Origin: Chthoniobacteraceae bacterium
GTDB lineage: Bacteria; Verrucomicrobiota; Verrucomicrobiia; Chthoniobacterales; Chthoniobacteraceae
Direction of reading: 5' to 3'
Assembly: GCA_031409335.1 (NCBI GenBank)
Contig: JANNWY010000295.1
Location: 1-47,360 of the forward strand
DNA length: 47,360 bases
A program made the position numbers. Shown one piece after another: positions 3,001 to 18,000 of this stretch (positions are counted from its first letter, which is position 1; the number at the start of each line of letters is the position of its first letter).

Positions 3001-6000
3001 GAAGGCGAGCGCGCGCTACCGCGTGGACGACAATGGACGCCACAAGTTTCGGGTGGAGATCGAGAAGCTAGCGGCTGGTGACTACGCGCTCGTCATTGCA
3101 GGAAAGACCCGCGGCACCATCAACGCGGTGAGCACCGCGGGCGGTGTCGTGGGCGAAATCGAATTTGATAGCAAGCCCGAGCCCGGCCACCTGCTGCTGA
3201 ATTTCGATCCGCGCGGACAACTGATCGAAATCACTTCGCCAACGGGCAAATTCTTTTCGCATCTTTTCGGCAGCGGCTCCGCGGTGAATGGCGGCGGGAC
3301 AACGGTGCCGTTCGACATCAGTGTGCCGCTGCTCAATTCGGGTGCGGATTTCAACGCGACCGCCAAGGCGGAACTGACCCGCAAGGCCACAGGCGAGTTG
3401 AGTTTTGAAGTGGAAGTCGAAGACGTCAATGCCGGCGCATATGAACTGCTGGTTGGAGGAATCGTGCGCGGGACATTGAATGTCGTCGCTGACGGCAATG
3501 GGACGCGCGGCAAGATCGAGTTCGATGATGAGCCAGGTTCTGGCAAGCTGCCGCTCAATTTCTCCGTCGCTGGTCAGAACATCGTTGTCCGGCAGGGCGT
3601 GACCGCCTTCTTTGATCGCACCTTTCCGGTGCAATGAAGCCGCAGATAGCCGGAAACCTGATTGCGGCTAATACGATTTAGCCTGTGGGATTGCGCGAAG
3701 GCGGAGCGCACGCCAACGGCGTTCCATCGATCAGCCCCGAGCTGACGTTGGGAATTTAGCGGGTTTGAAACTGCGGAGCTATTCTCTGTAAAATCGCATT
3801 CTTTGCTTTTGGAAACGGCCCCGGCGTAAACCGGGGCTTCATGCTTTGGGGGTGCGGCATAGGTGAAGACGATCTCGATCGGGGCGTCATGCTCGCGCGG
3901 TGTAGGCTGGGCGGGAAGCGGGAAGCGGGAAGCGTGGCTCGTGCAGGGGCTGGGGCGATGTGTGAATGTGGGTGTGGCTCGCGATACGTGGGGTGAGTTT
4001 GCAGGGGCGGAAATCAATCGGGCGTGACCGATCGCGATGTGCGTGGTTGCGACGGCTGGAAATGTGCCCGGCGAAGGTTTCCGCTTGATCCGGCACGTGG
4101 CGTGGTCACGAATGAGAGGGACCACATGCCTTCACCCGAGGTTTTTTACCTGCACATCCACGGCGAGCAACTCGGGCCGTACACCGTTCCTCAGATCGAC
4201 CATCTGCTGAACACCGGCCTGATTGCCGAGGAGACGCTGTACTGGTGTGAAGGTCTCGAACAGTGGGCCCCCGTCGTCTCGCTCGTGCCGAAGCGCGTCG
4301 AAAAACGCTCGCTCGGAAAATTGCTCGCCATGCTCGTCGGCGCAGCCGCGTTCGCGCTGGTGTGCGCATTCGTCGGGCCGGTCGTCGTCAATGGCTGGCG
4401 TGAGGCCAGCCAGCACGAATACACCGCCAAAGCCGCCTACTGGCGCGCGCGCGAAGTGGTCCGCAATCGCAGCGTGCCCGCCGGTTCGCTCGTCAGCTTT
4501 TCGGGTTTTTCAAAAAGCACCGTGCAGCTCCAGTCCGAGGGGCGCGCGGCGGTGGCATTGCGCGGCGAGTTGGTGGACGCGCGCGGCACCGCCGTGCCGA
4601 TGGTCTGGCAGGTGGACATGAAATTTGACGAACGCCGCGCGGAATGGTCCGGCACGCCAGCCGCGAAGCCGACGGAGAAGTGACGTAAATCGGTGGACGG
4701 AATCCCGATTCCGTGGCAATGAGACAAAATTTTTATCCCCCGAATGAGCTATTGTAATTCATTGCGTTCCTTTCTTTTTTTCCTCAGCCTTTCTTTGACG
4801 CGGATCGCTGCGGCGGAGCAGGTGGTTTTTTCGGAAATCATGTATCAGCCGCCGGTGGGAAAGCCGGAGTTTGTCGAGGTGTGGAATATCACGAATACGC
4901 CGCTCGATATGGCGAAGTGGCGGTTCAGCGATGGGGTGAATTTTACGTTCCCGGATTTCAACGCGGGCAGCGCGCAGGCGCATTTTTTGAAACCGATGGA
5001 GCGGATCATCGTGAGCGCGGCGTCGGATGCGGTGACGCGCGCGGCGTATCCCTCGATCCCGGTGAATGTGCGGATTTTTGGGCCGTGGGATGGGCTGGCT
5101 TCACTGGATAACGGGGGCGAGCGGGTGACGCTGAAGGACAAGAATGACGTGATCGTTTGCACGGTGAAATATGCTGACAGCGGGCGCTGGGCGGTGGCAG
5201 CGGATGGGACGGGGCATTCGCTGGTGCTGGCGGATGAAAACCGCGCGATCGACGACTGGCGGGTGTGGCGCGCGAGCACGAACAACGGGGGCTCGGCGGG
5301 GCTGGCTGATCCGGCGTTGCCGGCGGCGGGGCTGGTGCTGAATGAATTGCACTTTCGCACGGCGGATGGGCACGTCGATTGGATCGAGGTGCGCAACAAT
5401 TCCCAGACGACGGCGCAATCGGCGGCGGCGCTGTTTGTGGCTTCGGCGCTGGATTTCAGCGACAAGATCGCGCTGAGCGGGAGCGTGGCGGTGGGTGGCG
5501 TGGCGAGTTTCAATGTCGATTTCGCGCCGGACAACAATGGCGACATCCGCCTTTACCTGATCGACGCGAGCAACCAGGTGCGCAGCGAGGTGAAGCTGCG
5601 GCGGAAGGTGGGACGCGAGGCTTGGCAGGTGTTTCCGGCGGGGAGCGGCGAGTGGTTTAACGATGTGGCGGACACGCGCGATGCGCAGAATAATCCGGCG
5701 CGGAATACGGATATCGTGATTAACGAAATCATGGCGGACCCGCCGGGGAATGAACGCGACGGGGAGTTTGTGGAGCTGCACAATCGCGGTTTGTCGGACG
5801 TGATCGTGGGTGGCTGGAAGCTGGACAGCGCGGTGAATTTCACGATCCCGGCGGGGACGACGATCCCGGCGGGCGGGTATCTGGTGATCGGTGCGAATGC
5901 GGTGAATCTGAACACGATCTACACGGGATTGACGGCGATCGGGAACTGGAGCGGCTCGCTGGGAAACAGCGGTGATCTGCTCCGCGTGGAGGATGCGAAC

Positions 6001-15000: not shown

Positions 15001-18000
15001 AGGAATATCGGATTGAACCCGGTCGATCCGACCGGCGTGTATTTTGAGGATGGCAATCCGTTTTCGAGCCGATTCACGTTTGGAAATCTGATACTCCAGC
15101 CCGGCCACTACTGCGTCGTCACCAACAACACCGCCGGCTTCATCGCCTTCCACGGGACCGGCGCGAACATCGCCGGCCAATACACCGGGTCGCTCAATAA
15201 CGACGGCGAAGCCATCACGCTAAAGGATATCGCTGGTAACATCATTCACGATTTCAGCTACAGCGACATCTCGCCGTGGCCCGCCACGCCCGATGGCTTC
15301 GGACCTTCGCTTGAAGTCATCGCCACTGATCCGGCGCTCTACAGCCTCGGCACGAACTGGCGCGCGAGCCGGGAGATCGGCGGCTCGCCAGGCTACCTTG
15401 GTTTCGCCGCCGATGCTGATGGCGATGGCCAGCCAGATACGGTCGAGCTTGCCTTCGGCAGCAATCCGAATGATGCGAGCTCGATTCCAAATGTCCCCGC
15501 CACCACGCGCACCGCGGGAGGTGGCGAGGTCACGCTGGCCTGGGCCGGCGTCAGCGGGCGCGCTTACACCGTGGAGTATTGCGAGGACCTGCTCACCGAT
15601 ACGTGGCAATCGCTCGCGACCGTCATCGCCAGCGGGCAGACTGTCACTTACACCGACACCTCCGCCGGGCTCGCGACCCATCGCTTTTACCGGATCGCGA
15701 CGCGGTTCCCGTGAGCGCAGTCGCGTTGACCTGAGACTGGCTGGAGCTTGCGGATGAAGAACGTCACGATTCACAGCGACGGAGCCTGTGTCGGAAACCC
15801 CGGTCCGGGCGGCTGGTCTGCGGTGCTCGAGTATGGCGGGGTGAAAAAGGAGATCAGCGGTGCCGAGATGGCGACCACCAACAATCGGATGGAACTGCTC
15901 GCCGCAGTCGAGTCACTCGCGCGTCTCAAGGAACCGTGCGCGGTCGAATTCATCACCGACTCGACCTATGTGCGCGAAGGCATCACCAAGTGGGTCAAGG
16001 GTTGGAAAGCCAAAGGCTGGATCACGGTCAAGCGGGAGCCAGTGAAGAACGCTGACCTATGGCTTCGCCTCGACGCTGAAGCGGCACGGCATCGCATCGT
16101 GTGGAAGTGGGTGAAAGGGCACGCGGGAAACGCAGGGAACGAGCGCTGCGACGCACTCGCCGTCGCCGAGATCGAGCAACTCCGCGCGCGCCACACTCCG
16201 CAGCAACTCGCGGCGGCGCTGGACGAATTCAAGGCGCGGCAGTCTCCCATGCCGGATGGGTTGAGCCTGTTTCGCGCGGAAGTGTGAGCGGTCGCGCGAG
16301 TCACTGGCGGTGGCGGAGCTTGTCGAGCAAGACCGCACCGAGGATCACGAGACCGAGCACCACCTTCTGGGTGTAGCTTTCGACGTTGGTTAGATTCATG
16401 CCGTTTTGGATCACCGCGATGGTGAATGCGCCGGTCAGCGTCCCGAGCATTTTCCCCTCGCCACCGCTGAGGCTGGTCCCGCCGACGACGACCGCGGCGA
16501 TGACGTATAGCTCGTACATGTTTCCGTAAGTCGGCGAGCCGCTCTTGAGTTGCGATGCCATAATCACGCCGCCGAGCCCGGCGAGCAGCGCGCTGGCGAT
16601 GTAGGCAAACATCAACACGCGCGGGACGGGCACGCCGCTGAGGCGCGCGGCCTCGCCGTTGCCGCCGACCGCGTAGAGGTACCGCCCGAGCTTCATCCGC
16701 GACATCAGCACGTGTGCTAGGGCGTAAAGGACGAGCATGAGCACGACGGCGTTTGGCAGGCTTAGCAAATCCGCGCCGCGCCCGAGCCACACGAAGGAGT
16801 CTGGGATTTGGTAAACCGACTGGCCTTTCGCGAGGATGTAGGCGAGTCCGCTGCCGACGAGCATCATCGCGAGCGTCACGATGAAAGGCAGGATACGAAA
16901 CCGCGTGATCATCGCGCCGGAAAATGCGCCGACGATTCCGCAAAGGACGATCGCCGCGACGCAGGCGAGGAACATTCCGCCGATCGAGGCATTCACACCG
17001 CCTGCGAAATCGCGGATGAATCGCGCGGCGAGCACGGCGGAAAGCGCAAGCAGACTTCCGACCGAAAGATCGATGCCGCCGGTGATGATAACCATCGTCA
17101 TGCCGATCGCGACGATGGCGATCACGGCGATTTGGTTCGCGATGTTCAGGAGGTTTTCGGACTTCAGGAAATTTGGCCAGCGGTAGCTGCGCGGCGTGAT
17201 GACGCGTGGCTCACCGAGCGCGGGGAAGTCGGTCTTCAAGTCGGAGAAAACGAGCCATGCACCCGTGGCTCTGGTACAAGCGATGGCGTCGAGTCTTCCG
17301 CCGGACGCGGCGGCTTTCTGCAAGGCCTCGCGCGCGTCCTTCGGCTCGCCTTTCACCACGATGGCTCCGGTGAAGTCGCGCTCCAGCTTCGCGGCGAACT
17401 CCGCGTCGTCCGGTTGATCGCCCGCGGCAATGAGGACGCGCGGCGTTTTTCCGAACTGCTCCTGAATGCTGGCCACGACTTGCTTTGCGGCTACCTCGCC
17501 GGTCGGCGATTGCTCGCTGTAAGTCGCCACGCTGAAGAAGGTGCAGAGCAGCAGCAGCACGAAGATCATGCCGTAGTCGGCGAGGAAGCGGGAGTTCTTC
17601 ATAAGTGATCGAAGGAAAAGTAAGCGCGGGGCTCCGTTGTCCCGGAGGGACAGTAGAAATTAGCCGGTGGTGAAGCGAGTCCGCGAGCGCAACCACCGGA
17701 CCTTGAAGGAAAACGACTCCGCCCCGGCAGGAGCGCTGGAACGGAAACGCGGACGCGATTCCAACGCCCCTTCAGGGCAGGCTCGCGTTTTGGCCGGAGT
17801 CCGGTGGTTCCCACTCGCGGACTCGCTTCACCACCGGCTACCATCTTTCGTCCCTCCGGGACTGCGGATTCAGCGCGCCGACGCGCAATGGACCGTGACT
17901 CATAAGGTCACGCGACGGCGAGCTGCATGATTTGCTCCTGCGTCGCGCGCTTTGGGTCCGCGATTTCCCCGGTCACGCGACCTTCGTGCATGACGAGGAT

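Follow-up and report, generated by a model that had tools for sequence, protein, structure and literature searches.

We confirm that a small domain is carried by some 200 unrelated exported proteins of this genome, more than were first counted, and propose as the best reading, with a probability of roughly 45%, that it serves as an export tag and that a secretin machine recognizes it. In favor of such a tag are its terminal position on unrelated bodies, its place at the N-terminus of RHS-repeat and DUF1800 proteins, its alternation with PEP-CTERM and its linkage to secretin genes; against it are the absence of this linkage here and from core secretin clusters, the occurrence of secretins without the tag, arrays that would fit a binding module equally well, and the published role of MUL2 in attachment and in the uptake of glycans (PMC13174399). 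As the survey's finding had stated, two tandem examples, both ending in the domain, lie in the window (the whole stretch of 47,360 nucleotides of contig JANNWY010000295.1 that was analyzed), at 4744-10203 and 10285-15714. The two genes have a common architecture of three Lamin tail domains (LTD), CotH, a PKD-like domain and TSP3_bac, followed by the terminal domain, which in neither gene has a Pfam or NCBIfam match above noise.

4744..10203, + strand: gene 1, exported LTD/CotH/PKD protein of 1819 aa with the terminal domain
4744..4815, + strand: gene 1, signal-peptide-like N-terminus of 24 aa, with a hydrophobic core and AAA ahead of the first LTD (heuristic sequence reading)
5698..6027, + strand: gene 1, Lamin tail domain, best of three (PF00932)
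7282..7917, + strand: gene 1, CotH kinase-like region (PF08757, E 3e-10)
8524..8760, + strand: gene 1, PKD-like Ig domain (PF18911, under the curated cut-off)
9901..9966, + strand: gene 1, TSP3_bac-like acidic linker upstream of the tag, probably Ca-binding (PF18884, just under the curated cut-off)
9958..10200, + strand: gene 1, terminal six-stranded FnIII-like domain, subtype A, last residue Pro (HMM and predicted structure)
10285..15714, + strand: gene 2, 1809 aa, tandem paralogue of gene 1 (62% identity)
10285..10356, + strand: gene 2, signal-peptide-like N-terminus (heuristic sequence reading)
11239..11568, + strand: gene 2, Lamin tail domain, best of three (PF00932)
13147..13452, + strand: gene 2, CotH kinase-like region (PF08757, E 4e-8)
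15412..15477, + strand: gene 2, TSP3_bac-like acidic linker upstream of the tag (PF18884, under the curated cut-off)
15466..15711, + strand: gene 2, terminal six-stranded FnIII-like domain, subtype A, last residue Pro (HMM)

We searched 68,970 six-frame ORFs with our own iterated HMMs for two subtypes (A and B), allowing matches at any position, and found 198 copies of the domain in 195 ORFs at iE<0.01. Reversed decoys gave no match at <0.1, and one match (C118:3035) proved to be a canonical FnIII domain and thus a false positive. Adding 12 further divergent copies at chain ends gives 207 ORFs in all, so the earlier count of about 170 was too low and about 205 now replaces it. No more than 15 aa separate the domain from the ORF end in 178 of the 195 main matches, and in a slice control at E<1e-3 it matched 173/4448 C-terminal slices, 0/1790 mid-protein slices and 0/4448 reversed slices. 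Proline is the last residue in 104 of 176 closed terminal ORFs, and the enrichment for a final Pro claimed by the survey holds (84/142 carriers vs 337/3412 other proteins). C-terminal placement, in contrast, stands as a tendency but not as a strict rule: of 17 non-terminal matches among the 195, nine are placed at the N-terminus of the mature protein and one is the FnIII false positive, and tandem arrays of up to 11 copies, with a period of 70-89 aa, occur in other organisms. The position is terminal, not strictly C-terminal. The N-terminal copies come after the signal peptide, and their carriers include two RHS-repeat and three DUF1800 proteins, the C-termini of which are occupied.

The predicted model is an all-beta sandwich of six strands in FnIII order with strand G missing, which agrees with the six-stranded FnIII-like fold first assigned to the domain. 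Structural matches are mostly to FnIII, with middling Z scores of 7-8.4 and an rmsd of 2.3-3.3 A over 70-78 residues, and the alignments end ahead of strand G (e.g. 9-79 of 96 in 3mpc, 2-76 of 90 in 7jgu). Foldseek gave no match at E<=0.001, and sequence searches of the PDB returned only weak matches to FN3/CBM-type proteins. The reported lack of database coverage was likewise borne out, with no Pfam family in 66 members and none of NCBIfam in the 30 subtype-B members scanned; full-text literature searches, taken as titles and abstract openings, yielded no description of the domain. In a single-sequence model (pLDDT 73), each of the tandem copies forms a six-strand unit of its own, which weakens obligate donor-strand complementation, and the spacer between them is too short for an extra strand.

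Such a fold could also belong to a lineage-expanded, truncated FnIII end-cap, or to a generic substrate-binding or spacer module, spread by domain shuffling and with no role in sorting. This reading draws on the FnIII fold itself, the tandem arrays, the low conservation (29% mean column identity) and the lack of the domain in whole families that still export proteins. We consider it unlikely, given that mid-protein slices are empty, that a single copy per protein is usual in this genome (two copies in 3/195 ORFs), that the domain and PEP-CTERM exclude each other on the same body type, that across genomes the tag is largely complementary to another multi-copy domain, and that some tagged genes stand in secretin-linked operons.

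By a noisy heuristic, signal-peptide-like N-termini were found in 116/142 carriers, compared with 51/144 Walker-A controls, 98/118 PEP-CTERM proteins and 1691/3412 other proteins, and no Tat motif was found among the 142. A TM segment is absent in 138/142 carriers, a lipobox is present in 3/142, and a Ca-loop linker precedes the domain in 66/142. The domain is concentrated on surface-type families, being frequent on LTD (49/57) and CotH (25/36) proteins, rare on sulfatases (2/71) and DUF1553-like proteins (0/43), and nearly missing from PQQ-like proteins. This genome has 97 PEP-CTERM matches, none of them on the 142 carriers, and the 77 PATR proteins end in PEP-CTERM in 51 cases, in the domain in 10 and in both in none. 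The family bias that the survey described is reproduced, as is the exclusion of PEP-CTERM and, by this noisy heuristic, the pairing with signal peptides. Its proposal of a sorting or anchoring role is still the best reading and gains from the alternative ends of PATR proteins and from a candidate secretin partner, while losing strict C-terminality; the function itself is one that we infer. Unlike PEP-CTERM, the domain has no dedicated protease that we could find, and no recurrent machinery, scaffold or cohesin-like gene lies beside the tagged genes of this genome. A crude heuristic found no large novel beta-barrel in this genome or in genome G089. The two genomes have in common a TPR-ExbB-ExbD-ExbD cluster, a possible energizer.

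The main rival, a possible if rather doubtful one, is a non-covalent surface docking module of the SLH or dockerin kind: proteins would be exported by an independent route and then bind a surface polymer, a scaffold, or a secretin or pilus, which would hold enzymes beside glycan uptake. Because carriers have almost no TM segments and few lipoboxes, they would need a tether. The frequent Ca-loop linker is in line with docking, as are the alternation with PEP-CTERM, itself an anchor, and the presence at both ends and in tandem arrays, as in anchoring modules. It would explain secretin-cargo operons as well, and published work presents MUL2 as machinery for attachment and uptake (PMC13174399). 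However, a recurrent scaffold is missing here, and docking leaves unexplained how proteins of 1000-3000 aa cross the outer membrane in genomes of genus g8 (Akkermansia-like) that lack GspD. RHS-type proteins, moreover, usually bear a trafficking module at the N-terminus.

A secretin that is encoded beside tagged genes in some relatives is a new candidate here and may be the machine that reads the tag. Among 73 related loci, 23 stand-alone Amuc_1098-like secretin loci of Kiritimatiellales could be evaluated (13 single, 10 paired), and a tagged gene is directly adjacent in 21 of these: it is the next gene in 11/13 single loci and a flanking gene in 10/10 paired loci (six downstream, including one truncated at the edge of the locus, and four upstream). 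The cargo bodies of these linked genes are varied. In G089, with 25 tagged among 1768 called genes, a tagged gene directly follows 4/5 secretin loci, or 3/4 once two paralogous pairs are collapsed (P=1e-5 vs all genes, P=0.007 vs large exported proteins). The linked stand-alone secretins score best to NF042912, under its cut-off, have no Amuc_1099-1101 neighbors and fall, in a quick tree, into two clades of possibly one origin; the paired copies lack an N0-like domain, and G089 has no Amuc_1100/1101 homologues.

This link is lineage-limited, with one or two origins. The next gene is tagged in 0/30 core Amuc_1098-1102 clusters, and no linkage was found in three further genomes (G005, G023, G123) or in this one, where the tagged gene closest to the Amuc_1098 cluster (on C33) is 43 kb off. 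For five genomes the comparison rested on coordinates. Tagged genes upstream of four core clusters (L204, L208, L218, L221) were dropped as support because housekeeping-like genes intervene (prfB-like and trpC-like by sequence reading), and a weak case in G053, also with intervening housekeeping-like genes, was dropped too. An Amuc_1098-type match, in some cases partial or divergent, is present in 45/45 strongly tag-positive panel genomes, and the five panel genomes with no such match have no tag either; many genomes keep such secretins, which were checked in a subset, yet lack the tag. The secretin therefore looks necessary for carriers, but not sufficient. In G060 and L250, a different terminal domain lies directly behind the Amuc_1098-type secretin.

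The patchy spread across the phylum that the survey reported was partly an artefact of leaving out subtype B, but whole families are still without the domain: subtype-B matches are absent in 9/14 g8 genomes, and 0/23 f13 and 0/12 f20 genomes are positive. Five g8 genomes (G063, G078, G084, G087, G120) hold 1-6 tag copies each, with one tagged protein in G078; the copies are terminal in every locus read, on GH18, BNR and sulfatase-like bodies. Among 70 relatives of the CotH body, 48 have the tag and none has PF18962 or dockerin listed; on homologous bodies, we thus saw neither a T9SS CTD nor a dockerin in its place.

The same five g8 genomes bear on another alternative, in which the domain is a portable signal read by the classical GspC-M/GspD type II secretion system (T2SS). 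Full-length GspD (E<1e-75) is found in 43/45 tag-positive vs 18/35 initially negative genomes, counts in which kin genomes are not independent, and there are several T2SS gene clusters in this genome and one complete operon in G089. But the five carry the tag with no full-length GspD, and at this threshold GspD was also not found in G036 and G072 (in the latter, the match lies near a contig end). Operon linkage is unsupported, as a tagged gene occurs in 7/20 GspD windows and only one is close and on the same strand. We hold this alternative to be improbable.

If the domain is instead an export tag, cargo would enter the periplasm by Sec, as the signal-like N-termini and the lack of a Tat motif suggest, and would fold there, in keeping with the haem c and Ca-loop proteins among the carriers. 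The tag, at the free end of the mature chain, would then be recognized by a secretin machine of the Amuc_1098/MUL2 type, to which gene linkage and distribution point. In recognition, a beta-strand would probably be added to the conserved R-F-Y-R-V strand F, an edge strand in the predicted fold for want of a strand G; this binding mode is speculative. The protein would next cross the secretin and be released or stay on the surface. Given the N-terminal and tandem copies, a sortase probably does not cleave it. Where a lineage has several secretin systems, T2SS may serve too.

Verrucomicrobiota play a major part in degrading fucoidan, mucin and the polysaccharides of soils, and in the literature we found no answer to how they bring large enzymes and adhesins to the surface without a T9SS. 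Borne by about 3% of this proteome, the tag would make the exoproteome of the phylum predictable from sequence. A portable, folded secretin signal would be unusual, because T2SS signals are generally regarded as conformational. The tag would also suggest a function that can be tested for the Amuc_1098 secretin, which in Akkermansia muciniphila is described as more abundant than any other outer-membrane protein (PMC4960237). More doubtful is the wider claim that Verrucomicrobiota own a general secretion route, in which an Amuc_1098/MUL2-family secretin would export folded proteins with a terminal FnIII-minus-G tag and other lineages would use a second, unrelated terminal tag. Such a route would follow a T9SS-like logic built from type II/type IV pilus parts, and the Akkermansia 'pilus' locus would then have to be seen, at least in part, as a secretion system. 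Even as an anchor, the domain makes up a large uncatalogued family, with 7,374 clusters at E<=1e-10, part of which may be FnIII cross-matches.

Among known systems, fibronectin type III (PF00041) has the same sandwich and strand order and gives the best structural and weak sequence matches, but the domain lacks the seventh strand G, has no PF00041 or other Pfam match (66 members) and is strongly terminal. PEP-CTERM/exosortase (PF07589) likewise marks the C-terminus of the same kinds of body (e.g. PATR) in this genome, whereas the domain is folded and soluble, has no PEP motif, TM helix or basic tail, and never co-occurs with PEP-CTERM on one protein. Dockerin and SLH are small terminal modules found at either end of many enzymes and sometimes repeated, as is the domain; unlike them, it is all-beta rather than helical, without a family match and with no scaffold among its neighbors, and its acidic loop lies upstream, so that the duplicated Ca-loop/helix fold of dockerin is not present. 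With the T9SS CTD (type A, PF18962/TIGR04183, Bacteroidota), a terminal domain on Sec-exported proteins (PMC12618676), it shares a small beta-sandwich that ends many unrelated Sec-exported proteins, the carriers in one genome numbering from tens to hundreds. The survey's comparison with this CTD stands as an analogy but not as relatedness: no member scanned matches PF18962, TIGR04183 or TIGR04131, and PorV is not found in this 98% complete genome with a control positive in B. thetaiotaomicron, on which grounds we reject T9SS membership. PF18962 has 0 matches in the genome (with a silent control), SprA is found in 0/80 genomes (with no control genome positive), and T9SS CTD structures are missing from the top 50 fold matches, mainly FnIII, although the two folds may be similar; the domain further differs in being FnIII-like and six-stranded, in its N-terminal and tandem copies, and in a secretin as candidate channel. 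[quoted passage not shown]

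The last domain of two tandem paralogues in the window, for which neither Pfam nor NCBIfam holds a covering model, provided the only seeds for our profiles of the terminal tag:

4744-10203, LTD/CotH/PKD protein with a signal-like N-terminus, a TSP3_bac-like acidic linker and the last domain
10285-15714, tandem paralogue with the same elements

A search of all 68,970 six-frame ORFs of this genome (7.94 Mb, 98% complete) with profiles of two mutually homologous subtypes (A short, B long; hhalign probability 97.6) detected 198 domain copies in 195 ORFs, while none of the reversed decoys matched at E<0.1; in 178 of the 195 the domain is no more than 15 aa from the end of the ORF. 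In a slice control, matches occurred in 173/4448 C-terminal, 0/1790 middle and 0/4448 reversed slices, which added 12 more divergent terminal copies and brought the total to 207 ORFs. The survey's finding had counted about 170 carriers with the domain near the C terminus; the position stands, but the number is larger. Its claim that the domain lies outside Pfam and NCBIfam is borne out by 66 members without a Pfam family match and 30 subtype-B members without an NCBIfam match. The domain's neighbours in the ESM Atlas are Verrucomicrobiota clusters without a name, and no published description was found in titles and abstract openings of the full-text literature. The domain is a real, large and uncatalogued terminal family. 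The window also encodes a 615-aa protein that has a signal peptide, repeated DFDPRG-like units and no Pfam/NCBIfam match (1790-3637, + strand), and a 3821-aa hybrid NRPS-PKS that also has sulfotransferase, aminotransferase and luciferase-like domains (33746-45211, + strand).

The tag is predicted to adopt a six-strand FnIII-like fold, in agreement with the earlier proposal (Z about 7). The AlphaFold2 model, built from a 53-sequence input, has six strands and a pLDDT of 87.9, and FnIII domains dominate a wide structural search at Z 7-8.3, the best match being Nir2 (Z 8.4, rmsd 2.5, 78 residues aligned); scores of this middling size say nothing about function. The structural alignments cover only the first 70-80 residues of domains of about 90, indicating that strand G is missing and that strand F is the one with the conserved R-F-Y-R-V. 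When modelled with no alignment, a natural three-copy protein forms separate six-strand units (pLDDT 73).

Seventeen of the 195 matches are non-terminal. Nine copies lie directly behind a signal peptide, some with an acidic linker between (three DUF1800, two RHS-repeat, one MBL hydrolase, one MauG-like and two unknown proteins); the others are one canonical FnIII, two remnant-like and five internal matches. Against a 50%-identity library the subtype-A profile matched 76,146 clusters at E<=0.001, FnIII cross-matches among them, and 7,374 at 1e-10. Among the best 150 clusters, which are biased to multi-copy proteins, tandem copies have a period of 70-89 aa, and the last copy is still terminal in 125/146. 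The proposed C-terminal sorting tag therefore describes most copies, but not the nine N-terminal ones or the tandem arrays elsewhere; the position is better described as any free end of the chain, and a C-terminal signal cleaved by a sortase is accordingly less likely. The arrays would also suit a neutral end-cap, a reading that we consider improbable, and a surface docking module, which is a serious though unlikely possibility.

A crude gene caller yielded 5364 genes, and we scored the 142 whole carriers with a length of 200 aa or more. The claimed pairing with signal peptides holds in part: 116/142 carriers have a signal-like start, versus 51/144 Walker-A controls and 98/118 PEP-CTERM proteins, but the heuristic is a coarse test only, also positive in 1691/3412 other proteins. 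None of the 142 carries a Tat motif or PEP-CTERM, so the tag and PEP-CTERM do exclude each other, as the survey had stated; a lipobox occurs in 3, no TM segment in 138 and the acidic linker in 66. The tag is portable among body families (set by local jackhmmer), with the expected bias to LTD (49/57) and CotH (25/36), and is also found on DUF5122 (7/8), DUF1800 (3/4), YHYH (3/5), GSDH (5/15) and RHS-like proteins (2/6); it is rare on sulfatases (2/71) and absent from DUF1553-like (0/43) and PQQ-like (0/32) proteins. The 77 PATR proteins end in PEP-CTERM (51), the tag (10), contig run-off (2) or otherwise (14, one barrel-like, several PEP-like or broken). Tagged genes adjoin one another in 36/198 cases, with runs of three to five at C29:8051-27639 and C70:13091-28067. 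A 292-aa tagged protein at C300:6510-17121 follows a 2238-aa RHS-like gene with an N-terminus that may resemble the SpvB/TcdB type; similar tagged proteins of about 300 aa recur at several loci.

No recurrent family was found beside tagged genes in this genome, so we read G089, a small carrier of another class (2.2 Mb, 1768 called genes), where 23 of 25 tagged ORFs are terminal. A tagged gene lies directly behind 4/5 of its secretin loci (two paired and one single Amuc_1098-like, one PilQ-like); the fifth, a T2SS operon, has none directly behind. With the two pairs counted once, this linkage (3/4) gives P=1e-5 versus all genes and P=0.007 versus large exported proteins, of which 6/49 are tagged. 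The best 80 among 560 confirmed relatives gave 73 loci, mostly from Kiritimatiellales. Behind 18 single stand-alone secretins, the next gene is tagged in 11, a broken gene ending in the tag in 1, another gene in 1, and not evaluable in 5; at 17 paired loci, the tagged gene is downstream in 6 (one at a cut locus edge), upstream in 4, and not evaluable in 7. Among 38 core loci of the Amuc_1098-1102 type, 0/30 evaluable ones have a tagged next gene. The cargo bodies are diverse (LTD, PLD, PATR, CBM4, S8, unknown), and single-secretin cargoes have a C-terminal region in common. These operons are lineage-limited: by coordinates, the pattern is repeated in two further members of the G089 genus (G011 and G017) and is absent from G005, G023 and G123; it is also absent from the window's genome. 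In a quick tree built from X-free secretin cores no shorter than 230 aa, the linked secretins fall into two clades that may share one origin, so the linkage, apart from the PilQ-like case, represents one or two events kept over long branches. G089 also encodes a 107-aa lipoprotein-like protein, nearly all tag domain (L102:10350-10670), with no homologue found in the window's genome.

Excerpts of PMC4960237 describe Amuc_1098 as the most abundant outer-membrane protein, a PilQ by prediction, and excerpts of PMC13119276 liken Amuc_1100 to T4P/T2SS proteins. For the core cluster, MUL2, PMC13174399 describes a type IV-like pilus locus that serves attachment, is likened to a secretion system and goes undetected in Methylacidiphilales; its main text does not mention a cargo tag. 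Amuc_1099-like components of the secretin cluster at L221:6452-7468 and C33:62488-63522 share the acidic linker motif with many tagged cargoes.

The distribution of the tag, previously described as patchy (30/61 genomes), covers 80/151 phylum genomes by the subtype-A profile, this genome included, although single weak matches may be FnIII; subtype B, searched in 80 mostly negative genomes, matches 7, among them 5/14 of genus g8, which we infer to be Akkermansia-like. All 20 subtype-B loci read are terminal. The sole tagged protein of G078, a GH18/BACON protein, may be the counterpart of Amuc_2164, a GH18 according to excerpts of PMC8966484 and PMC12834350. In a panel of 45 tag-positive and 35 initially negative genomes, full-length GspD is present in 43/45 versus 18/35, and an Amuc_1098-type match in 45/45 versus 28/35 (of the other negatives, two have a weak match and five lack one). 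No full-length GspD occurs in the five tagged g8 genomes, which have two secretin loci each; direct tests place those of G078 and G120 in the Amuc_1098 family, and for G063, G084 and G087 the assignment to it relies on size and match range. The tag is thus nested within carriers of the Amuc_1098-type secretin, many of which have no tag, and not within GspD carriers; that it is a T2SS signal, for all the frequency of GspD among positives, is hardly probable.

Other terminal domains exist. A second, unrelated and uncatalogued domain of about 130 aa, often doubled, is terminal in both examples read (L250:9861-10637 and protein P0307) and tag-poor lineages have 10-50 matches to it in each genome. 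It is multi-copy in G024, G045, G048 and G108 (no tag) and G060 (few tags), and a single query found no match in the other 75 genomes. In L250 an Amuc_1098-type secretin immediately precedes it, and coordinates show the same order in G060. In G024 and G045 the only Amuc_1098 matches are weak, which argues against an exclusive link to that secretin. All 7 matches to a third small family are found no more than 15 aa before the stop; two belong to LTD proteins without the main tag:

C316:26586, third-family member
C118:3035, third-family member
C280:7526, third-family member
C182:19631, third-family member
C83:151851, third-family member
C310:16633, third-family member
C226:13630, third-family member

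The secretin is a concrete candidate channel for tagged proteins. We tentatively propose, at a probability of roughly 45%, that the tag is an export signal: Sec would carry the protein into the periplasm, where it would fold, be recognised by the secretin machine, perhaps through beta-addition at strand F, and then pass to the surface. This reading and the docking module are compatible, as the secretin itself may be the site where the tag docks cargo. A conserved operon (C58:1111-7975 in this genome; G089 L127:12795-20000) encodes a large TPR, a small TPR-like, an ExbB/TolQ, two ExbD and a bitopic protein, a possible energiser of an envelope machine. The survey had likened the tag to the T9SS CTD. 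No T9SS parts were found, PorV being the only component whose control was positive, and the nine N-terminal copies also depart from that model; the tag follows a logic comparable to that of the T9SS CTD, yet is no member of that system.
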